Part shown: in pieces, positions 29,766 through 62,300 of the stretch
How positions within the stretch are numbered: the first letter of the stretch is position 1
Layout: each line of letters begins with the position of its first letter
Origin: a virus
Lineage: Duplodnaviria > Caudoviricetes
Virus record (IMG/VR): IMGVR_UViG_2974647559_000001
Span: 20,609 to 84,608 of that record
Direction: 5' to 3' (one strand)
Length of the DNA: 64,000 bases
Made by a program: the position numbers and the translations under genes
Notes under the pieces: generated by a model
The model's database searches: none
What the model saw: only the letters and a program-made list of their open reading frames with translations
What the model was told of the DNA's origin: nothing

Positions 29766-30425
29766 ATGAAAAATGTTAGACGAGAAGATTGGGAGTCCTT
29801 ACAGCCAACTGTTTTCGGTTGGGGAATAAATGATGTTGAATATAATGTTCATAAAACAAAGATGGTAAGTAATAAACAGGAGATAGTGTGGAGATGCCCT
29901 TACTACAGGAAGTGGGTAAAGATAATTGAAAGGTGCTTGTGCCCTAAATTCCAAGAAAAGTACCCAACCTACAGAGGTTGTACAGTGGCCGAAGATTGGA
30001 GATACTTTAGCAATTTTATTAAGTGGGTTGATTCTCAGCCCAATAAAGACTGGATAAATTGCGAACCCGATAAAGACATTTTGTTTGAAGGTAATAAGCA
30101 TTATTCCCCTGAAACTGTTGTTTTTGTTTCTAGGGGAGTTAATGTGTTTATCGTAGATAGCGCGAAAGACAGAGGAGACCATATGATTGGGGTTAGTTAC
30201 GTACCGGACAATAGCAAAATAAACCCCTATCAAGCTAGGTGCAGCAACCCCTTTGGGAAAGGTAGGCACATAGGATCATACCCTACAGAGCTAGAAGCTC
30301 ACAAAGCTTGGCAAGCTAAGAAACATGAATATGCTTGTATGTTAGCTGATTTACAAGAAGATGAACGTGTGTCGAAATTACTCTATGAGCGTTACACTCC
30401 ATATAAAGATTGGACAAATAGATAA
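29766..30425 (+). CDS. Free-standing HNH-type homing endonuclease with AP2-like C-terminus
   Basis: GWGIND, CPYYRKW, YRGCTV..W..FSNF, DKDIL..GNKHYSPET; own promoter TTGACT-17-TACATT (29706-29734). Confidence 0.75.
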   Translation: MKNVRREDWESLQPTVFGWGINDVEYNVHKTKMVSNKQEIVWRCPYYRKWVKIIERCLCPKFQEKYPTYRGCTVAEDWRYFSNFIKWVDSQPNKDWINCEPDKDILFEGNKHYSPETVVFVSRGVNVFIVDSAKDRGDHMIGVSYVPDNSKINPYQARCSNPFGKGRHIGSYPTELEAHKAWQAKKHEYACMLADLQEDERVSKLLYERYTPYKDWTNR

Positions 30426-30782: not shown

Positions 30783-31211
30783 ATGTCTGAAGAAATCAAA
30801 TCTGTAGATACCGACGATATTGAAGAAGATAAGCCAGTTGTTGTCCGTAACGAAAAAGGACAGTTCATAAAGGGTGTGTCAGGTAATCCCAACGGAAGGG
30901 GTAAAGGTAATCAGTCTAAGCTCAACAAGACTAAGTTAATTACCCAATATAATAAGTATGGTACAAAATCCTTTGAAGATATTGTACGTCTTGGCAAGAA
31001 AGCTGAGAAAGCTGGTCAACTAACCACAGCACTAAAAGCTGCCATGTTTATAGCAGAAAAACACTTGCAGATGGTTTTACAGCAAGATAAAACAGCATTA
31101 GAATTACAAAAGCTTCGCATGAAAGAATCTAAAGATGATGGTGATTCTGATGAAGAAGATAAGGACCTGACACAAGCCATTTTCGAGTGGCAACGTGCAG
31201 AGAATGATTAA
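30783..31211 (+). CDS. terS: Putative terminase small subunit
   Basis: GQFIKGVSGNPNGRGKG motif; position upstream of terL; promoter TTGCAT-17-TATAAT (30719-30747). Confidence 0.65.
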   Translation: MSEEIKSVDTDDIEEDKPVVVRNEKGQFIKGVSGNPNGRGKGNQSKLNKTKLITQYNKYGTKSFEDIVRLGKKAEKAGQLTTALKAAMFIAEKHLQMVLQQDKTALELQKLRMKESKDDGDSDEEDKDLTQAIFEWQRAEND

Positions 31212-31235
31212 AGATTTCATAACTACAACAACATC

Positions 31236-31350
31236 CTAGCTAACTCGCACACCACTGAATATTAGGTTGAGAACATCAGTGCATTCCCTGTTAGCATTAT
31301 CTCCAGCCCCATTTAATGTCCCTCCTTTCATTACTTGGGGTTTATTTTTT
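31236..31350 (+). ncRNA. Candidate small structured RNA ending in a terminator-like hairpin
   Basis: GCTAAC/GTTAGC and CACTGA/TCAGTG stems; AGCCCCA/TGGGGTT plus T-tract; shares a 20-nt motif with 31935. Confidence 0.4.
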
Positions 31351-31383
31351 GTTGTAAAATAATTAACATACAGGAATAAAATT

Positions 31384-31638
31384 TTGAGTAAAGAAATTAA
31401 AGTATATCAGTCACGCAATCTTAGCGACTATAGCAAGAAGTTGGTCGAGCTGGTTAAAGCTGGTAATGAAGTGTTATTAGACCAGTGTATCAGTATGCTC
31501 GGTAAAATATATACGATTAAGTATTATGAGCCAGAAGCTGTTGTAGAAGAGACTGTAGAAGAAGCTGCTGTATCCTCAGAGGGTGTAACAACGAAAGCTG
31601 TTAAGAAGCCCCGTGGTGGTTCCGCTTCCACAAAGTAA
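31384..31638 (+). CDS. Hypothetical protein with low-complexity C-terminus
   Basis: ORF with AGGA RBS. Confidence 0.65.
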   Translation: MSKEIKVYQSRNLSDYSKKLVELVKAGNEVLLDQCISMLGKIYTIKYYEPEAVVEETVEEAAVSSEGVTTKAVKKPRGGSASTK

Positions 31639-31639
31639 T

Positions 31640-32020
31640 ATTTAAGGTTATGATTGGTTGGCTACACCAAGCTCAGGTGAGTGAAGTAGCAATAATTAAT
31701 ATAAAAATCCTGAACCGTCCCTAGTAATAGGTTGGATTTCTCCCTGTAATAAGGGCAAGCCAAAGTGCTGAGAAATGTTTTTAATTCGGATTAATTTGAG
31801 GCGAAAGCCCACTACGTGATGACCCAGCCGAAAGGTAAGGTTCCTGCTCTGCAATAATTTAAGTTGCATCAGGTTTCGTGGTGTATTCTAACGCTAGTAA
31901 TAGTATTGATATGGCACGTTATGTATTTCACAGCCCACTCAATATTAGGTTGAGGTATCCCTGTGATGACACTGGGAAAGACTAGATTATTCTACTTTTA
32001 GCAGAGTGGAATTAAAACTA
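31640..32020 (+). ncRNA. Candidate large structured non-coding RNA
   Basis: ORF-free; several GNRA-capped hairpins and a multibranch junction. Confidence 0.5.
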
Positions 32021-32021
32021 A

Positions 32022-32207
32022 AAGTTTGCAAAAGTTTCAGATGAGTGTATATTAGAAATACTCTACAAGGCTCACAAACTAAACACACCTCAAAAATTAA
32101 TATGCAATGAATATGGACTATCCCCTGCACAAGTCAGCAGGATAGTCAATGGAAGTAGACGTAAAGATTTACATGATCAATTCTTTGCAAAAGCGCATTC
32201 CCAGTAG
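32022..32207 (+). pseudogene. Start-less HTH reading frame (possible endonuclease remnant)
   Basis: ..TPQKLICNEYGLSPAQVSRIVNGSRRK..; in-frame TAA at 32019; no ATG/GTG/TTG in frame. Confidence 0.45.
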
Positions 32208-32233
32208 TGCGCTCTCTCGAAGGAGTAACAAGT

Positions 32234-32356
32234 ATGGCAAGACCAAGCAGCAAGAAAGTCTCAAACGTACAACCAAAAATGGAAGTGTCACCACAACCAG
32301 TACAGATGAAATTTTTAAAAGCCACCGAATCTATAGTATTCTTTGGCGGTGGAGCT
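32234..32356 (+). CDS. terL: Terminase large subunit, exon 1
   Basis: AGGAG RBS; MARPSS..VSPQPVQMKFLKATESIVFFGGGA (first half of Walker A). Confidence 0.9.
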
Positions 32357-32592
32357 AAACCAAAACTGGTTCCACTTTAATCAACCCCTCTAATTCGATG
32401 AAACCCTAACGTGCAGACGAGGGCAATATCGAGCAAGGCGAAAGCCGTGTGTAGAGACTATCGAAAGACACTTAATGTGAATCTAGTAGAGTAGGCAACA
32501 AGCGTTGTCGAAACGGGGGGCTACGAAAGTAGAAGATATAGTCCGACACTGAGGGAAACCTCAGAGAGTGTAGCGAACTCTATAACAGAAAG
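32357..32592 (+). mobile_element. Group I intron (IA2-like, 236 nt, no ORF) in terL
   Basis: P1 GGAGCU/GGUUCC with U.G at the splice site; P AAUUCGAUGAAA; Q AAUAUCGAGC; R UAGAGACUA; S AAGAUAUAGUCC; GAAA-capped P6, P8 and P9; terminal G; splicing restores GGGAGGGKT in frame. Confidence 0.93.
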
Positions 32593-33948
32593 GGTGGTGG
32601 TAAAACTTGGTCAATATTGATAGATAACTTACAATTCTGTCACGACCCGCAATATTTTAGTGTGTTTGTTCGTACAACAAACGTAGAGATTGATAATGGT
32701 CTTTGGCCAGAAGCCAAAAGAATGTATCTTCCATACTTGGTAGATAGTCAAGGCAGATTCTTAGGCAAAGCCCACATATCAGAAAAGAACAAAACCATAA
32801 CTTTCCCCTCTGGTGGTAGAACAAAGTTCACCTATTGCGCGACGGATAAGGATGTTGATGCGTGGTACGGATCGGAGATAACTCGTATATATCTGGATGA
32901 ATGCCAGCACCGTACCGAATATCAATTTGACTTATTCAAATCTCGTAACCGTTCTATGGCTAAAGTGCCAAAAGGTATGAGATGTACGCTGAACCCATCA
33001 CCAGATAGCTTTATTTATAAATACGTAGAGCCTTTCCTAGACGACGATAAGTACCCAATACCGGAGTTATCTGGTAAGACACGTTATTTTACCATACTGA
33101 ATGGTATCCTCATATCATCTTGGGATGCAGACGACATACGTAATGATACAGGGAAAGAACCAGAAACTTACACGTACATACCCGCAGTTCTTGGGGATAA
33201 CGAAAAGTTAATGGAGATCGACCCTGCGTACAAGAATAAGCTAGACGCATTGCCTGAAGCTAAACGTAAACAACTCCTGTTAGGGTGTTGGGCATCTACC
33301 GATGAAGATGGTTTGTATTTCAAGCGGGAATACTTAAAAAGAGCCAACTCTATACCACTCCATAGTGTTTATTGCAGAGCATGGGACTTAGCATCTTCTG
33401 CTGGTGACACACCTAATACGGTTGGTTGTGATGCTACACAAGGTATGTTAATGGCTCGTTGCCCACAAGGTTATTTCTATCTCGTAGGTAGTAAGCGATT
33501 CAGAAAACGTGCTGGTGAGCGAGATCAAGAGATACTTAGAACAGCCAAACAAGATGGGCAAGATGTTACTGTTGTTATACCAAAAGATACTGGTGCTGGC
33601 GGTGCTGCTCAATATGAATACCTCTCAAAACTGTTAATAACAGAGGGTTTCATTGTTAAGCAAGATACTGCTGTTGCAACAACAAGCAAACTTAGTAAAG
33701 CATCCCCATTCTTCAGTGCATGTGAAAATGGTTTAGTGTATTTGGTTGAAAAGAGTTTTGAGACAGAAGAATTAGAACTCTGCATGAGAGAACTTGAAGT
33801 GTTTGATGGTGTATCAAGGTCTACAAGATTGCGCCACGATGAAACAGTTGATACATGCGCGACTGGGTTCAACTACCTATCAAAGAGACAATCAATACCA
33901 CAAATAAATCTACCAAACTTAACCAAATCAAATGAGTTTTCATTTTAA
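32593..33948 (+). CDS. terL: Terminase large subunit, exon 2 (spliced product about 492 aa)
   Basis: GGGKT, YLDECQ (Walker B), LNP, RAWDLA, HDETVD nuclease motifs. Confidence 0.93.
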   Translation, partial: GGGKTWSILIDNLQFCHDPQYFSVFVRTTNVEIDNGLWPEAKRMYLPYLVDSQGRFLGKAHISEKNKTITFPSGGRTKFTYCATDKDVDAWYGSEITRIYLDECQHRTEYQFDLFKSRNRSMAKVPKGMRCTLNPSPDSFIYKYVEPFLDDDKYPIPELSGKTRYFTILNGILISSWDADDIRNDTGKEPETYTYIPAVLGDNEKLMEIDPAYKNKLDALPEAKRKQLLLGCWASTDEDGLYFKREYLKRANSIPLHSVYCRAWDLASSAGDTPNTVGCDATQGMLMARCPQGYFYLVGSKRFRKRAGERDQEILRTAKQDGQDVTVVIPKDTGAGGAAQYEYLSKLLITEGFIVKQDTAVATTSKLSKASPFFSACENGLVYLVEKSFETEELELCMRELEVFDGVSRSTRLRHDETVDTCATGFNYLSKRQSIPQINLPNLTKSNEFSF

Positions 33949-35441: not shown

Positions 35442-36848
35442 ATGGCACACAAACTATCGAGGCTGTTAGCCGAGAAGATTTACAATAAACCCCTCTTGAT
35501 TACTATGGGCAGTCTAAATGCTGTCCTAGATTATCTGGAACACCGTACAGATTCAATCACATCAAAAGAAGTAGAAGCATCCCTTGTTGAAATGGGCGTA
35601 GAACGCTCTGAGAAGATGCTGACAGACACACTAGCTGTCATCCCTATCACTGGTTCACTCTCATATGAAAAAACCTTCTTAGGCGCTTTGTGTGGAATGA
35701 CATCTTATGAAGGTTTAATCGAAGACGTCTCTGAAGCATTATCAATGGGATTAAAAACCATTGTGTTTCGTGCTGATAGTGGCGGGGGTGAAGCATATTC
35801 TATGATGTCTTGCGCTAAAGATATACGTGAAATGGCTGACCAAGCTGGTGCAAAGATAATCACATATATTGATGGGATGGCTGCTTCAGCTTGTTATGGC
35901 TTGATTGCAGTATCTGATGAAATCATAGCTCATTCTGACTCACAAGCTGGTTCAATCGGCGTTGTTATTCAATTGATGAATAACTCAGGTAAATTAGAGA
36001 AAGAAGGCTACAAACGTAAGTTTATCACTTCTGCTGATTCCAAAGTGCCAGTTGATGATGATGGTGAATTCAAAGCTGAATGGCTTGCCGATTTAAAAGA
36101 ATCTGTTGATACATTACACGCTAAATTTGTTAACCATGTTGCAGCTTACCGCCCAATGAGTGCTGAACAGGTTGATAGTCTAAAAGCGAAAGTATTTGGT
36201 TCAGATAAAGCCTTGAGTCTTGGTTTGATTGATAAAGTCATGGATCACATGGAATTCCAAGAATACTTAGAACAAATATCAGAGGAAGTGAAGGAACCTA
36301 ATATGTCACTGTTTGGTTTATTTAAAAAGAACACTAAGGCATCTGCCGATGTGTCTCAGATTATGTCTGAGCAACAACAAGAAGCTGCGCTTGCAGTAAA
36401 CCCAGAGGAAAATGTAGATATGGCTGAACAAGCCCTAATGCAAGAGTTGCAAGCTAAGCTAGATGCTTTACAGACTCAGTATGACGCTGACGTAGTAGAG
36501 GCGTTAGCTGCTCTTGATGAAAAAGATGCAGAGTTGAATGCAGCATTAAAAGAGTTGGCTGATATGAAGCAAGCTCAAGCTGAACAACTTTTAGCGGATA
36601 AAAAAGCTAAGTTAACTGCTGTAGTTGGTACGGAACAAGCTGACAGTTTGTTTGCTCATCTGTCAACACTAGAAGATTCAGCGTTCAATGCTGTAGTTGA
36701 TTCATACAAAACGGCTAATGCTAAATTCGATAAATCTGAATTAGCATCAGAAGTCGGTGTTGAAGCTGACGGTTCTGCTAACACAGTAGAAGCTGAATCA
36801 AAGTTAGTTCAACGTTTAAAAGCTCGTCAACAAAAACAATCTAAATAA
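35442..36848 (+). CDS. S49 prohead protease with C-terminal scaffold
   Basis: DSGGGE, GMAASACY, GSIGV; coiled-coil C-terminus. Confidence 0.9.
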   Translation: MAHKLSRLLAEKIYNKPLLITMGSLNAVLDYLEHRTDSITSKEVEASLVEMGVERSEKMLTDTLAVIPITGSLSYEKTFLGALCGMTSYEGLIEDVSEALSMGLKTIVFRADSGGGEAYSMMSCAKDIREMADQAGAKIITYIDGMAASACYGLIAVSDEIIAHSDSQAGSIGVVIQLMNNSGKLEKEGYKRKFITSADSKVPVDDDGEFKAEWLADLKESVDTLHAKFVNHVAAYRPMSAEQVDSLKAKVFGSDKALSLGLIDKVMDHMEFQEYLEQISEEVKEPNMSLFGLFKKNTKASADVSQIMSEQQQEAALAVNPEENVDMAEQALMQELQAKLDALQTQYDADVVEALAALDEKDAELNAALKELADMKQAQAEQLLADKKAKLTAVVGTEQADSLFAHLSTLEDSAFNAVVDSYKTANAKFDKSELASEVGVEADGSANTVEAESKLVQRLKARQQKQSK

Positions 36849-51420: not shown

Positions 51421-52929
51421 ATGGCTGGTCTAACAGAGTATGGGTTTACTCGTAAAACCCTTCAAGAAATCCTAACTTCTATGAAGCAAAACCTTCGTAG
51501 TAAGTTGGGTGAAGATTGGAATATTGAAACTGGTAGCCCAGAAGATCAATTCCTATCTGTATTTGCTGAAGAAGCTGACCAGTGCTGGCAGGGAGTAGAG
51601 GGTATCTACTCCAGCCAAACATTAGATGGCTCAGAAGGTATTTACTTAGATGATGTATTATCTCAACAAGGTGTATATCGTAAAGGTAAGACAGCTTCTT
51701 CTGGTAAGGCAATTGTATTTTCTTCATACAACACAGTTTCGCTTGGTTCATTAATACGCTCCGGCTCTACAGTAAGTGCTAATAACAACCTAACTTACCT
51801 AGTGCAAGAAAATACAACAATAGATAGTTATATGTCTGCTTACATAATAAGCACTAACCAGCTATCTGTAGGTATTGAGTACACATTTAGTATCTACAAC
51901 ACTAAGTCCCCAACAAGTACCACATTTACTTGGACACCAACCTCTGAAACAAACAAAGATACCATGCTTCAGAAGTTGGTTGAATATGTCAATGAGACAG
52001 TCCTAGATAAGCCTACACTAGCTTATTATAATCCCGCGACACGCACAGCTTACTTAGGATTTAATCAATCCACAGGGCTTCCGCAGCCGTTTAATCGTGG
52101 GGAGTTATATGTTACAACAACCCCTAGAGTGGGTAGCTCAGGTCACACTGTATTTCTTAAAACAGACACACTCGGTTTTAATCCACTAAGTCCTGCTGGT
52201 CTGATAAATCTATCCCCTGTTTATGTTGGTTATGAATCAATTATCAATGGTGATGATTTTAACTCTGGTAGTGACGTACAGACTGATGCCGAATATCGCT
52301 TAGCTGCAATCAATATCAAAGAGAGTAGTGTAGCGGGTACGAATGATAGTATTGTTGCTGGATTGCTAAGATTAGAAGGTGTTGTTGACGTTAGGGTGTA
52401 TGAGAATCCTACAGAGAATTTCATATATGATGTCTCTGGTAAAACAATCACGACACCTTACACATACAATGTTGCTGTGTTAGGTGGTGATGATTCCGAT
52501 GTCGCTCAGGTTATATTAGATAAGTCCCCATTAAACACTCGTCGTTATGGTGCATACTCTGCAAACGCTATTGATACTAAAGGTAACTCAATACCTGTCA
52601 ACTTCACACGAGTTGGTTACTTTGATGTGCAGATTGAAGTCAGTTATAAAACAAAAGATAATTCGGCTTTAACTGAGCAAGAAAAAGTGGCGATATCGAG
52701 TAATATTAATCAGGCAATTGGTGAATTAATTATTGGTGATAGTGTGCCACGTAGCTTGATGGAAGCCGTTACCTTTCAGTCTGTGGCCTTTAGTAGATTG
52801 AGTAAGGTTAGTGTTAGATTGAAAGATTTAACCTTAACCAGTTCAGCATACACTACTGAAGATTTGCAAGCTGATTATGATGAGAAGCCAAGAGTGCTTT
52901 TGGACAAAATAGAGTTTAAACGTATTTGA
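51421..52929 (+). CDS. Baseplate J-like wedge protein
   Basis: MAGLTEYGF, QTDAEYRL, GVVDVRVYEN, VLGGDD. Confidence 0.88.
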   Translation: MAGLTEYGFTRKTLQEILTSMKQNLRSKLGEDWNIETGSPEDQFLSVFAEEADQCWQGVEGIYSSQTLDGSEGIYLDDVLSQQGVYRKGKTASSGKAIVFSSYNTVSLGSLIRSGSTVSANNNLTYLVQENTTIDSYMSAYIISTNQLSVGIEYTFSIYNTKSPTSTTFTWTPTSETNKDTMLQKLVEYVNETVLDKPTLAYYNPATRTAYLGFNQSTGLPQPFNRGELYVTTTPRVGSSGHTVFLKTDTLGFNPLSPAGLINLSPVYVGYESIINGDDFNSGSDVQTDAEYRLAAINIKESSVAGTNDSIVAGLLRLEGVVDVRVYENPTENFIYDVSGKTITTPYTYNVAVLGGDDSDVAQVILDKSPLNTRRYGAYSANAIDTKGNSIPVNFTRVGYFDVQIEVSYKTKDNSALTEQEKVAISSNINQAIGELIIGDSVPRSLMEAVTFQSVAFSRLSKVSVRLKDLTLTSSAYTTEDLQADYDEKPRVLLDKIEFKRI

Positions 52930-52936
52930 GGTACGG

Positions 52937-54265
52937 ATGGCTACAGCTAATAAAATAATCAATGTATCGGATAGGGTGGAGAGAGCAAAAGCTCTCCTGC
53001 TTTATCAGTTTAAAGACAAACCAAACATTAATGCTTTAGTTGATGTTGTAGTCTCCGAATTGCAAGAACTTGAAAATGCAATAACTGACTTGCAGGAAGC
53101 TAGAACTCTGAAAGGAAGTTATGGTGTATTCTTAGATGAGATTGGTAAGCGTCTTAAAGTAGATAGGGGTAATTATGCTGACCCAGATTACAAAACCACT
53201 ATCAAGATTGCTATGGCTAAGAAAACTGCTTCAGCAACAGCACAGGATATATTATTCCTTGTTGAATTACTTACTGCCGATCCAAACGCAATACTTACCA
53301 ACAACTACCCTTACATGGCGGAGCTGACTGGTTATCTATATTGTATTGCTGATGACCCCGCTGGTTTGGAGGCTCTGGCTGATTTATTCCCTGTTAACAC
53401 AAGAGTAAGATTGATTCAGCACTTTGATAAGAGTTTTAAGTTTGGTACAGCAGGTAGGGGTTTTGGTAGTGGTAGTACGCTAAATAGTTTGGTCTATCAT
53501 CGTTACGGTGATATTGACAACCCATCATTCAATGTAAGCCCTGTTGAAGTAACTCCACCGCCACTAACTACAGCACCTTTTATTATTATATCTCCTTATG
53601 TAACTGGTGAAAATACAGAGGGTAGTACGCTGACTGTCGATAATGGTGAGTGGGGAGGTAACACACCCATCGTATATGTATACCAATGGTTGAGAGATGG
53701 TTCAAACATTGCTGGTGAGACTAACCAAACCTACATATTAACGTCTGATGACTTAGGGTTGAGCGTTTCTTGTAGTGTCACAGCAACCAATTTATATGGC
53801 TCTGATTCTAAAGTAACCAATGTAGTTGTAGTAGATTCTACTCCAACACCTACCGCAATTCTCACTGAAGATATAGGTTTGTCAGACATATATTCTAATG
53901 TTATATATTCAAGTGGTGGTGATGTGTCGGTAGACGCGATATTAACATTTGCGAGTGATGGTACTACCGTTAGAGATGGCAATTCAACTATCAACGACCA
54001 ATGGCTAACCACTACAGGTGTCGGGTTGGGAGCAAACTATACACTGTCCTATTCAGTCGTATCTGGTGAACCTTTCGCCAATCTGAACCCCAACGTATTA
54101 TATGACCTAACTAGCCCAATAACCTTCACAGTAAATGAAACTGCTACAGGTAACAGGGTTAACACATCTACTTACAATTTCACCATACGTAGTAAGACGG
54201 ATATTAGCATTAGTAAAACCAAACAAATTACTATGACGGCTGAAATTATAGACTTCAGCGTTTAA
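52937..54265 (+). CDS. gpI/DUF2612-like baseplate protein fused to an Ig-like domain
   Basis: LLYQFKDKPNI..GVFLDEIG; GSTLTVDNGEW..YQWLRDG..TYIL..D. Confidence 0.7.
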   Translation: MATANKIINVSDRVERAKALLLYQFKDKPNINALVDVVVSELQELENAITDLQEARTLKGSYGVFLDEIGKRLKVDRGNYADPDYKTTIKIAMAKKTASATAQDILFLVELLTADPNAILTNNYPYMAELTGYLYCIADDPAGLEALADLFPVNTRVRLIQHFDKSFKFGTAGRGFGSGSTLNSLVYHRYGDIDNPSFNVSPVEVTPPPLTTAPFIIISPYVTGENTEGSTLTVDNGEWGGNTPIVYVYQWLRDGSNIAGETNQTYILTSDDLGLSVSCSVTATNLYGSDSKVTNVVVVDSTPTPTAILTEDIGLSDIYSNVIYSSGGDVSVDAILTFASDGTTVRDGNSTINDQWLTTTGVGLGANYTLSYSVVSGEPFANLNPNVLYDLTSPITFTVNETATGNRVNTSTYNFTIRSKTDISISKTKQITMTAEIIDFSV

Positions 54266-58396: not shown

Positions 58397-58815
58397 TGGA
58401 ATACTTAGAGATACTAAATAGACTTTGGTATCTCTTTCTTTTCCCTGTAGTCGCTTTTATTGTAAAAGAGGACAAGGAAGTTCCTATTTTATTTTCTCTG
58501 ATGTTAGTATGGAATAACATTGTTTTTGATGTTATCGGTGTCCCACCTACTGTATGGTTTCTTGTGCAAGCACTATTCAGTATTTTATTCTGGTATGGTT
58601 GTAAATACATATCTTATCTACCGCTAAGAAAGGCAGCAAGAATAGTATGCCTATATGTAGTATTCGTTAACTTATTTGAACAATTTTCATTATACCAGAC
58701 AATATTCTACCCTTGGTGGGAAATAATTAATTGGGTAGCTTTGGATTTAATTGCTGCTTGCATTTTACTAAACAATAAAGTATTGAGGGTGGGAAAGAGT
58801 GTTCAACCAAATTAA
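58396..58815 (+). CDS. Multi-pass membrane protein
   Basis: 4-5 hydrophobic segments. Confidence 0.7.
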   Translation: MEYLEILNRLWYLFLFPVVAFIVKEDKEVPILFSLMLVWNNIVFDVIGVPPTVWFLVQALFSILFWYGCKYISYLPLRKAARIVCLYVVFVNLFEQFSLYQTIFYPWWEIINWVALDLIAACILLNNKVLRVGKSVQPN

Positions 58816-59095
58816 ATTATATATCTACGGAGCAATAGCTGCCGCAGGATTATTCTTGGTAGGTATGTTGAAATACTTATCTGCAAAGAATAAGTCATTA
58901 GAAAAAGAAGTAGAAACAAACAAGAAGAATGTCATAGTGCTTGAGAAAGCATCTGCTGACAGAAAAGAATTAGATAAAGCTGTTGCCGAAGTCAAGGCTG
59001 AAGCTCAGGTGGTGGAACGTGAGAATAATGAAAAACGCGCTAAAAAGATTAGGCCGAGTGTTGGGGATAGCTTTGGCGATAAGCGTCTTAATTAG
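58799..59095 (+). CDS. i-spanin (Rz-like)
   Basis: N-terminal TM then coiled coil. Confidence 0.75.
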   Translation: MFNQIKLYIYGAIAAAGLFLVGMLKYLSAKNKSLEKEVETNKKNVIVLEKASADRKELDKAVAEVKAEAQVVERENNEKRAKKIRPSVGDSFGDKRLN

Positions 59096-59378
59096 TTGTA
59101 AGACAACGCCAGAATATGTATATATCCAACCGGAGTGTTCGCCAGCACCCCGTTTAGTTCTTCCTGAGATTGATTCTGGGAAGCTTTATTCTGTATTGGT
59201 ACTACCGCATAGCCTACACCCTCAAGACCTCTCTACGTTAGCTCCAGAGCTTTTAAATGGGTATGACGGGGAGGATTTGTACTATGATTTGGTGAATCGG
59301 GATAAATTGATGACAGATATGATTCTAGAAAACGAAGCTATTATAAAAAGCGTTTGTAAGAAGGTAGATAATGGCTAA
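59028..59378 (+). CDS. o-spanin (Rz1-like) lipoprotein
   Basis: Signal peptide with lipobox LISC; overlaps the i-spanin. Confidence 0.75.
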   Translation: MKNALKRLGRVLGIALAISVLISCKTTPEYVYIQPECSPAPRLVLPEIDSGKLYSVLVLPHSLHPQDLSTLAPELLNGYDGEDLYYDLVNRDKLMTDMILENEAIIKSVCKKVDNG

Positions 59379-62300
59379 CGACAATTATACAGCAAACGCT
59401 GACGGCTCTTGTTATGTTGGGATGTTTAACGCATCTTTATTACAACAAGCTATAAACTCCGCTACGGTCAGCTCATGGACGCAATACACCAGTACAAACA
59501 TTAATGATTTTATTCCGGCATATAGCCCTGACAGGGCTGATATTGCTATATTTGAAACTGACGAGCTTAGAAAGCTGACAAATTGGTCTAACAAGTGGGG
59601 CTACGACAGGGTAAACCGCAAAATTGTTGGTGTCGGCACATCTGAGGGGTATTTTGCAGGAGCTAAAAACTACAGAGGAAAGCAAGTAACATTTCCTCTA
59701 GCCGACAATGCTTTTAGTGTGCAGTACGGGCCGTTACCTTTAGTTAACGAGGGGCATACTTATGATCGAAATAGCTCAATACCAGACAGTGTAGGCAGGT
59801 TTTATTGCACGACTTTAGTATCAATAGGTAGCCCCAAAATTTATCGCCGTGATTTAGCAGGTGAGTACACTGATGTATTTACCTTAAGTTCAGTAAATGT
59901 TGCAGGCTTGGCAGGCACAAGTAATCTACTTCATGCCCTCGATGTATTTCCCGAAATGGGCGCAGAGGGTTCTGTCATTACGTTTGGGCAACGAGGCGCG
60001 TTGGTTAGGTATGACATAGCGACAGGCGTCGGCACTTTGCTTTACACTGCCGCAACAGATAACAGTCATTATTATGGCGTTTGTGTTTACTCCAACGGTC
60101 AGATTATATTCGGCGCTGGTGAATCATCAAGCCAACTGTATCGACTTGATAGTAGTGGTACGGTAACTGCGTTATCAACTGCGCCACCGCATCCTATTAA
60201 CTGCAAGTCAAGTTACAAATACCTGCCCAGCCCTGTTGATGGCGACAACGCTTGCTACAGCTTGGAAAATGACACCATGAGAATGTATAAACATAATTTA
60301 ACATTAGATATATGGACTGATATAGGGCCAGCAGTACCGACAGGCAATTTGGTGCAGACCGTTTTTGTACCTTTACGCGGCCTAAATGCGTTTGCTTGTT
60401 TTTGCGGCAAGGGTAGGACTGGCGGGTTAGACCAATCGGAATTCTGGATTTATAAGGTAACTACATAATGGCTTACGCATTATTATTTAACGGCTCTGGA
60501 TATGTTAGCATTCCTGCAAAAACGGCAGGTAGCGCGTCTACAGATACTTGGACGGCTCTTTTTGATTTAGAAATACCAAACACATCAAACCAAACCATTT
60601 ATGCCGCAACATCGACAGCGTTCACTGATATTTTTAGGATTACAGGAGCTAATACCGTTGCGTGGCGGATAGGGGCCGGAACCACAAACAACATAACAAT
60701 TAGCCAAAACTGGCCCATAGGCACCAGATTTCTTTTAGGCATTTACCGTGAGTCAGGCCGGAACTTAGTAATAACTATTGATGGTGTTGAGGTTTACCGC
60801 GCTAACAGCGTTTCATTCGGTGGCGGCGGTAACGCTATAAGTGTTACATCAATTGGCAAAGCAAGTGTTGGTACGTTTAGCGGTAAGATGTATGAGGCTA
60901 CAATTCAGGGTGAAAACTATTTAAACCCTGACCAGCCCGACACTACTGTATGGGGTGACGGCACATTAACTGGTATACCAAGCACGAATTGGGAACCATA
61001 TGGCGGTGTCGCAACGCCAATATCATTCTCAGGCACAATACCAACACAATCATTCACTAACGGCGAATCAGTTAGCGTAGATTTATCAACATACTTTAGT
61101 GGCACTGAAACGCCTTTTACATTCACAAACACTGGAACAGCTTTAACTGGTTCAGGATTAACGCTTTCTAGCGCTGGCTTGTTGTCAGGTACTTACACAG
61201 GTACGCCTATAACCGGAGTGGTAGTCACTGGTACAGATGCTGCGACAAATACTGCGGCAAGTAATGCGTTTAATATTGAGACTGCATCTGCTGTCCGTAA
61301 TATATCAATTGCTGACAATCTACCAGCATTATCTAGTGCATTGTCAATGACATATGTAGCAGCGGGTGTTGGAACAATAACAATATCAGATTGGGCTAAT
61401 AACACAGGCACTGCCCTACCTAACCTGACTGGTATTACAGTGAATGTGCGTAGTTTGATAGATGGTAGTACGGTGTATCGTACAACTACTGCTTCTACTG
61501 ATGTAGGTAGCGATTGTGTTGTATCTGATGCAGCAATTGTAACTGGAACTCAATATGAAGTAACAGCCCTGAAATTCAATGGCGCAGATTATGACATTGG
61601 TATCGCTATCATCACTGCAACGTAGGAGTAAACAATGTTTAGATTTTCTAACCAACCTATTGTTTCTTCTAAGTTTGTTTTCGGTGTTGGTAATTTCGGT
61701 GTTCTTTATGATGTTGTGCCTACTACTGGACAGAACGGGGCGGCAGTCTTATTAAATGATGGCGGGGTTAATGGAGATTATGTAAGATTACGTATTGACT
61801 CTATTGACCCTACAATTACATCACTGTTTGTCTATGAAGATGGTAGTTTTGAATCTCAGGGTACTGGACAATGGACATATTATTATAGTGAAAACGGGAT
61901 AGAGAACCCTACCCTAAACACTGTTACAATTAATCCATTTGTTACTGATAGCAATCTAACAATCAGTGATGTGCTTCCGGCATTATCTAGTAGTGTTACG
62001 ATTACAAATGTAGTTCCTGAATACAATCTATCTATTTCAGATTCATTCAGTCCCCTACAATCTTCAATGAGTTTGGTTAATGGTATTCCTGAGAGTAGTT
62101 TGAGCATAGCTACAACGCTTCCTAGCCTATCTAGCAGCGTTTCAATTGAGAATGTAGTACCAACGTATAGCTTAGCTATTACAACGTCCCTACCGAGCTT
62201 ACAGAGTACTGTAGGGTTATCCTATGAGGATGCCCTTTATGACATCACCATTAGCGACAACTTACCATCATTACAGTCTGCAATAACATTAGAAAATATT

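Follow-up and report, generated by a model that had tools for sequence, protein, structure and literature searches.

The open reading frame (ORF)-free stretch that precedes the large terminase gene (terL) of a Caudoviricetes virus, at positions 31640-32020, is probably an RNA island made of at least four independently folding and exchangeable modules, named here M1, M2, M4 and M5, together with lineage-specific hairpins, and adjoins the remnant of a nuclease gene. Positions are those of the window, that is, the whole stretch of DNA analysed (64,000 nt), which corresponds to bases 20609-84608 of the 84.6-kb IMG/VR virus record IMGVR_UViG_2974647559_000001 (Duplodnaviria; Caudoviricetes). The stretch is non-coding, its pairing is strand-specific and accompanied by compensatory changes, its modules are distributed in a modular manner among relatives, and the nuclease gene beside it is a remnant. 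It is presumably transcribed as RNA and may have a role in processing, stability or antitermination. A preliminary description made from the sequence alone had proposed a single highly structured RNA or ribozyme of about 380 nt between terS and terL, possibly linked to packaging. The structured parts of the region are as follows; M5 consists of two hairpins, hp1 and hp2.

31640-32020, + strand: ORF-free stretch under study, with packaging genes on the same strand
31654-31690, + strand: M1, candidate H-type pseudoknot in which UUGG/CCAA crosses GCUAC/GUAGC, with inner hairpin GCUC-AGGU-GAGU
31705-31795, + strand: M2, multi-helix domain
31705-10/31734-39, + strand: M2 helix P-a, enclosing a conserved internal loop UGAACCGU
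31720-31, + strand: M2 helix P-b, with a GUAA tip
31742-55, + strand: M2 helix P-c, with a GUAAUA loop
31758-69, + strand: M2 helix P-e
31781-94, + strand: M2 helix P-d, with a UCGG tip
31800-31841, + strand: two GAAA hairpins, GGC-GAAA-GCC and GUGAUGAC..CC-GAAA-GG, in this lineage only
31837-31918, + strand: segment C, with hairpins CCUG-CUC-UGCAA...UUGCA-U-CAGG (31843-73) and GCUA-GUAA-UAGU (31893-904)
31929-31965, + strand: M4, CACAG-CCCA-CUCAA-UAUUAGG-UUGAG-GUAUCC-CUGUG
31967-31985, + strand: M5 hp1, UGACA followed by CUGG-GAAAGA-CUAG
31989-32018, + strand: M5 hp2, AUUCUACU-UUUAGCAG-AGUGGAAU, then A-rich UAAAAC
31236-31352, + strand: upstream structured element, with a second copy of M4 (approximately 31245-31290), then a terminator-like hairpin and U-run (31305-31352)

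Neither strand of 31640-32020 holds an ORF of at least 60 codons with a start codon, in agreement with the preliminary description, and the longest ORFs encode 57 amino acids (aa; 31696-31869, minus strand) and 35 aa (31878-31985, + strand). All hairpins that it listed were located, namely AAATCC (31705-10) and GGATTT (31734-39) around CCTA-GTAA-TAGG (31720-31), CCCT..AGGG (31742-55), TTAAT-TCGG-ATTAA (31781-94), GGC-GAAA-GCC (31800-09) and CTA-GTAA-TAG (31894-903). The same applied to the parts of a proposed three-way junction (CACTACG at 31810-16 with CGTGGTG at 31877-83, CC-GAAA-GG at 31828-35, and CCTG..TGCAA/TTGCA..CAGG at 31843-73) and to a repeat, GTGATGAC, found at 31816 and 31963. GNRA tetraloops closed by at least three pairs occur four times on the + strand of the stretch and once on the minus strand; dinucleotide shuffles had a mean of 0.88 such hairpins, and 19 of 2000 shuffles reached four. 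Tiles with four GNRA hairpins are rare in the window (7/637); two of the seven are this region and the others, such as 52501-52981 and 58801-59381, lie inside long ORFs. Z-scores for the individual parts were -3.3 for M5, -2.15 for M4, -1.9 for the CCUG..CAGG hairpin, -1.3 for M1 and -0.8 for M2. The hairpin richness is thus real and strand-specific, and the stretch as a whole is not exceptionally stable.

We compared twelve relative loci (L005 and L007-L017, where L005 is a Logan contig) that were reached via homologues of a homing endonuclease, P0001, which has many full-length homologues. An RNA-motif scan added L018, L019 and L020, IMG/VR contigs of the same group, of which L019 is the same contig as L016. 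Homologue collection revealed compensatory changes in M1, M2, M4 and M5 among relatives, and G.U pairs are frequent in the conserved stems of the modules. M1 is present in the window, L005, L007, L009 and L011. Its helix H0 (NUGG/CCAN') was paired in 20/20, with U-A, G-C or A-U as the outer pair; its inner hairpin H2, G(C/G)UC...GA(G/C)(U/C), was also paired in 20/20, including a C-G to G-C swap; and its crossing helix H1 was paired in 21/25 with changes on both sides (variants GCUAC/GUAGC, GCUGC/GCAGC and CGCCU/AGGCG). The nested minimum free energy (MFE) alternative for M1 is not conserved, and a scan of IMG/VR for M1 returned none.

M2 was found in three lineages, represented by the window, by L008/L017/L140 and by L016/L018/L019/L020. 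Helix P-a was paired in 23/25, three of five pairs being changed on both sides (AAUCC/GGAUU, AAGCC/GGCUA with the outer pair unpaired, and ACAAC/GUUGU). Its internal loop is almost invariant, and P-b and P-c covary. Insertions of approximately 27-70 nt fall exactly at hairpin tips (those with GUAA and UCGG in the window). Scans for M2 recovered three IMG/VR contigs from one sample and one metagenome contig (L140); a stricter pattern recovered none in IMG/VR, and a match in a bacterial metagenome-assembled genome (L141) was due to chance.

M4 is also present in L011 and L016/L018/L019/L020, with variants in L012 and L017, and is missing from L005. Across six copies its outer helix was paired in 29/30 with all five pairs changed on both sides, and its inner helix was likewise paired in 29/30 with three of five pairs changed, including a C-G to G-C swap. 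Conservation extends to the loop UAUUAGG and the internal loop CCCA/GUAUCC. The copy in the upstream element has an identical loop sequence, AATATTAGGTTGAG, a 14-mer that occurs in the window only at 31258 and 31941, and the variant G31257C in related contigs restores its inner helix CUCAA/UUGAG. The fold of the element has a z-score of -2.96, and none of 200 shuffles was as stable. The element lies downstream of a DUF5681-like gene, with the M4-like hairpin inside GCUAAC/GUUAGC, and may be a small RNA or a 3' untranslated region.

In M5, hp2 was paired in 60 of 64 cells across eight relatives, with five of eight pairs changed on both sides and a conserved loop UUUNGCRA. RNAalifold on seven relatives showed both-sides changes at two of the four pairs of hp1. 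In L140 (reverse strand, approximately 2655-2790), a transfer RNA (tRNA) gene sits exactly between hp1, whose loop is GAGAGA there, and hp2, which are adjacent in other relatives.

The twelve loci share a gene order, i.e., a small upstream gene, an ORF-free gap (195-811 nt), a nuclease gene, terL exon 1 (approximately 45 codons), an ORF-less intron, exon 2 and the portal gene, and differ in the modules that they hold. L005 is 91-98% identical to the window in 31648-31702, 31837-31918 and 31988-32030; an unrelated sequence of approximately 124 nt replaces 31703-31836, and 31919-31987 is missing. Other relatives have M2 without M1, segment C or M5, and in the L016 group M4 is located inside the tip of M2 helix P-b. 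The break-points of this mosaic (31648, 31702/31837, 31918/31988 and 32246) fall at module borders. L019/L016 carries the nuclease, and in L018 and L020, which are without a nuclease homologue, an ORF-free gap of 700 nt ahead of terL contains M2 with M4 as well as two tRNA-like sequences; tRNAs also occur in the same gap of L017 and L140. Where M2 is replaced, we observed a rod-like RNA of approximately 85 nt (M3), in which ACACAC...GUGUGU closes several covarying helices with a loop AAACAGUAAGAC; it occurs in L005 (approximately 440-535), L007 (2590-2675), L009 (1130-1215) and L014 (100-190), and not in the window. Segment C is common to L005 (96%) and near-identical contigs only; the sole difference between the window and L005 in its stem, C to U at 31843, leaves the position paired, as U.G. 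For the two GAAA hairpins at 31800-31841, L005 has other sequence and no relative gives covariation. Exact-word scans of IMG/VR returned one chance match for segment C (L006) and none for segment E.

Because the modules combine freely and nest in one another's tips, the stretch is not one RNA. A single ornate RNA or ribozyme of about 380 nt, with the modules as domains of one fold held together by contacts of GNRA loops and possibly serving in packaging, would account for the four GNRA-capped hairpins in 380 nt, for the near invariance of the stretch in related contigs, and for long-range complementarity (UACACCA 31663-69 with UGGUGUA 31880-86, and CUCUGC 31846-51 with GCAGAG 32001-06); known large phage RNAs, moreover, vary in their outer domains. 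These long-range pairings, however, cross one another and are not checkable by covariation. L005 has an unrelated RNA in place of M2 and neither M4 nor hp1, other relatives keep M2 without M1, segment C or M5, no family of large RNAs or ribozymes matches, and the z-score of the whole region is -1.0. The closing helix of the three-way junction (CACTACG/CGTGGTG) does exist in the sequence, but it is not kept in L005, the only relative that shares its 3' strand, where CGTGGTG can pair downstream with CACCAC instead. We consider a single RNA very unlikely. As to a ribozyme or an intron, no group I or other ribozyme match was obtained at E ≤ 10, the flanking ORFs are not exons, and the RNA-labelled contigs described below contain no joint. 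The analysis gave no sign of splicing, self-cleavage or a part in packaging. The link to packaging had been drawn from position only, and the label terS is provisional, the upstream genes being a weak match to DUF5681 below Pfam's threshold and an 84-aa protein.

The genes around the stretch are the following.

29766-30425, + strand: HNH endonuclease gene (phrog_953; only the C-terminal half of this profile is matched)
30783-31211, + strand: gene for a 142-aa protein (match to DUF5681 weak and below Pfam's threshold)
31384-31638, + strand: 84-aa ORF, a complete small protein gene
32022-32207, + strand: startless 61-codon ORF, a nuclease tail
32234-33948, + strand: terL, with exon 1 at 32234-32356, intron at 32357-32592 and exon 2 at 32593-33948

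The 61-codon ORF is identical at 58 of 61 positions to the C-terminus of the intact 233-aa NUMOD4/HNH homing endonuclease P0001 of L005, and gave weak helix-turn-helix and HNH-endonuclease profile matches. Compared with L005, approximately 603 bp are gone from the window, and with them three hairpins, the ribosome-binding site, the start codon and approximately 173 codons. This deletion and the identity to the end of P0001 indicate that the ORF is what remains of a nuclease gene, a pseudogene coding for the C-terminal helix-turn-helix tail. In relatives, three conserved covarying hairpins (L005 670-745, L007 2925-3000, L009 1350-1425 and L010 2915-3000), deleted in the window, stand just before the ribosome-binding site of the nuclease. 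Their middle strand can pair with either neighbour (e.g., GGAC..GUCCUC..GAGGAC), so that, judging from the sequence, they look like a regulatory switch.

Twenty sequencing runs from 11 studies hold parts of 31300-32700. Two RNA-labelled runs and a DNA run yielded a contig that is 98.7% identical to the window over 30816-32246 and divergent beyond this block. Of the 19 differences from the window, the stretch (383 nt) accounts for one and the nuclease remnant (186 nt) for ten (11 counting a site just past the stop codon). At least two studies have runs with the nuclease-deleted form (X4 and X6 from one study, X2 from a second). This form is widespread, and decay of the stretch is at any rate no faster than that of the sequence around it. 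No splice joints or gaps over the stretch were seen in contigs of four runs, although contigs lose rare forms and do not demonstrate that splicing is absent, and a 284-nt DNA contig starts exactly at 31648. The RNA-labelled contig ends approximately 123 nt past 32246, near the terL 5' splice site of that lineage, and the DNA contig continues, which hints weakly that the RNA-labelled library does contain RNA and that splicing removes the terL intron.

These data bear on a further explanation, namely that the modules only controlled the nuclease gene (its ribosome-binding site or timing) and are now functionless, drifting DNA. Such a leftover leader would fit the position of the ORF-free stretch directly upstream of the nuclease gene in most relatives. 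It would also fit the three overlapping conserved hairpins before the ribosome-binding site, which were lost with the deletion, and homing endonucleases of T4 are controlled by such hairpins. However, nuclease-less relatives keep M2 and M4 beside tRNAs, and the stretch is for this reason not merely a nuclease leader. In addition, the related contigs differ once in the stretch and ten times in the remnant, the occurrence of the deleted form in at least two studies argues against a very recent accident, and hp1 is found in many phages away from any nuclease gene. We therefore regard a leftover leader as unlikely.

The hairpin hp1 extends well beyond this group of phages. A scan of IMG/VR with the pattern TGACA-SYR-GGAAAGACT-RS returned at least 118 stretches in at least 98 distinct contexts. 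The pattern comprises UGACA, a 4-bp stem N1N2RG/CUN2'N1' and the loop GAAAGA, and 31967-31985 of the window fits it exactly. Among the matches listed, both free stem positions pair in 98 of 98 distinct contexts (50% and 75% expected by chance), with at least 12 stem variants. The contexts listed include Streptococcus prophages (in the head-gene module), many marine and soil contigs, and tRNA arrays, and phages of both Gram-positive and Gram-negative hosts have the hairpin. In four unrelated contexts among these matches a tRNA starts 4-6 nt downstream, and in the window hp2 begins 3 nt past hp1. The 70 nt after hp1 fold at -15.0 kcal/mol, compared with -12.2 kcal/mol for same-strand controls of equal GC content (p 4e-7; the contexts are not phylogenetically independent). 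The third pair is often G.U, which indicates a strand-specific structure at the RNA level. hp1 occurs as a single copy in the 84.6-kb genome, no Rfam family covers it, and a text search of papers for its sequence returned unrelated primers and small interfering RNAs only. Most likely, hp1 would be a general signal preceding a structured RNA, a tRNA or an accessory gene.

The same observations help to judge whether the region acts as DNA, i.e., as a pac region bound by the small terminase, as PeSL-like recombination joints (see below) or as hairpin promoters, with incidental RNA folds. Its location between candidate DNA-binding small proteins and terL, the coincidence of mosaic break-points with module borders, A/T-rich promoter-like words after hp2 (including TATAAATA in L007) and a sequence ATGACA-16-TATTCT that overlaps hp1 would be in keeping with this explanation. 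Against it, the pairing is strand-specific, and the many G.U pairs would be C-A mismatches on the other strand; furthermore, stems covary and loops are conserved, as is typical of RNA. Promoter-like sites number four in the stretch vs 3.1 in shuffles, two of them being weak (9/12 matches; 31627-54 and 31966-93). A sigma-70 promoter at hp1 was rejected, since the spacing from TGACA to any -10-like word is not conserved across hp1 contexts. A purely DNA-level element therefore appears improbable.

Several observations weigh against an island of RNA modules. The module alignments were made by hand around the proposed helices, with 3-8 lineages each, and so lean towards structure and are suggestive only; M1, M2 and M4 draw on 3-6 lineages. 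The minimum-energy fold of M2 differs from the comparative fold, and for the middle part (31800-31918) near-identical sequences are the only comparative support. For the whole 401 nt, MFE z-scores of -1.03 (+ strand) and -0.06 (minus strand) are not unusual. The low number of differences in the stretch is marginal (approximately five expected, one seen; Poisson p approximately 0.04) and could be explained by recent recombination. As regards transcription, the RNA-labelled runs are contigs from which ends, strand and level are not readable, and in which DNA is possible.

The modules match nothing in Rfam 15 or the phage records searched, and in this respect the proposal of an undescribed RNA stands, given that Rfam cmscan yields no catalogued family. 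Nothing reached the gathering score across the 64-kb window, and searches of 2 kb, 331 nt and 86 nt at E ≤ 10 returned chance-level matches only within 31640-32030. This holds for the known large or ornate RNAs and ribozymes of Rfam 15 (GOLLD, ROOL, HEARO, OLE, raiA, RNase P, transfer-messenger RNA (tmRNA) and group II introns), and likewise for the hammerhead, twister, pistol, hatchet and hepatitis delta virus (HDV)-like ribozyme classes. The group I core (RF00028) had no match in 31640-32030 at E ≤ 10, though one of the same searches finds the terL intron. ARAGORN called no tRNA or tmRNA in the stretch, so that Rfam and ARAGORN together agree with the preliminary description on the absence of tRNA, tmRNA, group I, group II and RNase P signatures. 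In phage records, tblastn of the 84-aa and 61-aa ORFs returned no match, and blastn of 31200-32700 matched only the terL intron and exon 1.

Some individual resemblances were pursued and set aside. The hairpin CCUGCUCUGC...GCA-N-CAGG (31843-73) resembles the first hairpin of the Rfam model freshwater-1 (RF02979), but its score of 14.5 bits (E 1.5) falls far below the gathering score of 72, the other hairpin of the model is unmatched and L005 has no match. Readings of GUGAUGAC as a hammerhead (CUGAUGA...GAAA), box C/D or kink-turn motif were rejected, as the C is not conserved in relatives and Rfam gives only chance matches to small nucleolar RNAs. HDV-like, CRISPR-repeat-like and preQ1-like readings of M5 and M1, judged by eye, found no support.

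Orphan structured RNAs in phage intergenic regions beside tRNAs and homing endonucleases are a known kind of element. In phage T4, the tRNA region encodes the stable small RNAs RNA C and RNA D (species 1 and 2), and the free-standing homing endonuclease SegB lies in the cluster. The region studied here is similar in that a non-coding slot holds tRNAs (here in relatives), other folded RNAs and a free-standing homing endonuclease gene. It differs in that there is no relation in sequence or Rfam family, that no tRNA stands in the slot of this genome and that the slot belongs to the packaging module; the T4 RNAs are stable, and those described here are candidate RNAs. The promoter-early stem-loop (PeSL) cassettes reportedly described in T4-type phages by Arbiol et al. 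in 2010 are also short conserved non-coding units that recur at gene joints and are shuffled in a modular manner among related phages. A PeSL, however, is a promoter with one stem-loop before each small ORF, whereas the modules here fold into several helices, conserve their loops and contain G.U pairs, and promoter signals do not exceed chance.

Further systems for comparison are the antitermination signals of rrn and the nut site of the lambda type, in which boxA is joined by a boxB hairpin whose loop is purine-rich and GNRA-like. Similarly, hp1 combines a short conserved single-stranded word (UGACA) with a small hairpin of variable stem and an invariant purine-rich loop (GAAAGA), and is placed ahead of structured RNAs and genes. 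Unlike a nut site, it differs in sequence, its loop has six rather than five nucleotides, and no boxA-like word is apparent by eye. The hosts of the phages that have hp1 differ widely, which makes a phage-specific N protein improbable as its partner.

Zeng, Bonocora and Shub are said to have described in 2009 the 'collaborative homing' of an ORF-less intron with a free-standing endonuclease. Here, too, an ORF-less intron lies in terL 340 nt downstream, and an HNH gene (now a remnant) just upstream of terL. GNRA-capped hairpins are typical of group I introns; unlike them, the stretch has no core, interrupts no gene and shows no splice joint. In relatives, approximately 25 nt separate the free-standing HNH/NUMOD4 gene from terL downstream of it, and the terL intron itself encodes no nuclease. 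By analogy, the two could form a collaborative homing pair. In this genome the nuclease is dead and the intron remains.

The island would occupy a slot between small upstream genes and terL in an uncultured marine or aquatic phage, read on the + strand with the packaging genes. Related phages fill this slot with other mixes of modules, M3 and tRNA genes, and usually with a free-standing HNH/NUMOD4 gene just before terL; here, the deletion of approximately 603 bp destroyed the nuclease gene and left the modules adjoining its 61-codon tail. Most likely, the modules would serve in a long transcript as RNA elements that act in cis or are stable, either marking or protecting the ends of RNA or sustaining transcription into the folded RNAs and genes that follow. 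Such a role in RNA ends, stability or read-through is suggested by the position of hp1 directly ahead of folded RNAs or tRNAs and by that of M2 beside tRNAs. The modules probably double as recombination joints, a role also put forward for PeSL cassettes, which would give rise to the mosaic pattern, since they are common to diverged phages and the break-points match their borders.

One such break-point, at 32246, falls 12 nt inside terL and forms a sharp boundary of the mosaic. Leftward of it, L005 and the contigs from other studies are 94-99% identical to the window; rightward, blastn detects no identity. Beyond 32246, the terL sequences of L005 and the other-study contigs are related to each other, and the position therefore represents one recombination boundary and not two independent ones. 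Possibly, gene conversion connected with the nuclease ended here.

The terL gene itself, with matches to the Terminase_6N/6C and phrog_979 profiles and a Mu-type portal gene 3' of it (+ strand), is interrupted by a 236-nt ORF-less group I intron (RF00028 covariance model, 48.9 bits, E 6.6e-11), and its exons join in frame at the Walker A motif (FFGGGA|GGGKT). RF00028 scores 57-78 bits at the same intron site in terL of relatives. A database search with RF00028 returned no match in the phage's own genome, though cmscan detects the terL intron. L017 has a second intron further into terL, and terL of Vibrio phage qdvp001 is annotated as three pieces. An additional upstream terL exon, considered in view of the approximately 175 positions of phrog_979 that precede the exon-2 match, was not supported, because terL is preceded by a Shine-Dalgarno sequence of its own, its ATG lies at 32234 and relatives use the same start.

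Upstream of the stretch, the 84-aa protein has stand-alone homologues of 72-111 aa, is related to a 120-aa gene that holds the equivalent position in L009, and belongs to no Pfam or PHROG family. The protein (P0004) has a domain that is present ten times in one 1195-aa library protein, and several homologues in relatives end in an SAP-like motif or a basic KKxRGRK tail. The protein and its homologues may, from their sequences, be small DNA-binding proteins. An intron splitting one gene composed of the 84-aa and 61-aa ORFs was also considered and rejected, as the former has full-length stand-alone homologues and the latter is the nuclease tail. The second HNH endonuclease gene (29766-30425), 1.2 kb upstream, makes the neighbourhood rich in homing endonucleases. 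Elsewhere in the window, ARAGORN called a 94-nt tRNA-Val at 36610-36703, where Rfam has no tRNA at the gathering score anywhere in the window; this is probably a false call, the sequence around it reading like coding sequence.

These results correct the annotation of the region in two respects: the ornate RNA of 380 nt is a composite, and the startless ORF is a nuclease pseudogene. They also show that the ORF-less terL intron lies beside what is left of a nuclease by which it may formerly have been mobilised. M1 and M2 are testable candidates for new RNA families, and hp1, a 19-nt element with an invariant loop that is absent from Rfam, is the most general lead. It is conceivable, and we offer it tentatively, that M1 and M2 are new families of stable phage RNAs and that hp1 is a universal phage cis-signal read by a conserved host machine, marking folded RNAs, tRNAs and accessory genes. 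If so, that machine would be RNA polymerase with its elongation factors or an RNA-processing enzyme, and hp1 would be a so far uncatalogued, phage-wide counterpart of nut/rrn antitermination sites or of processing sites. Should the modules prove to be functional RNAs, these phages would provide a compact natural test bed, in which one slot holds differing mixes of a few small folded RNAs, tRNAs and a homing endonuclease, and in which comparing their gain and loss could assign functions.

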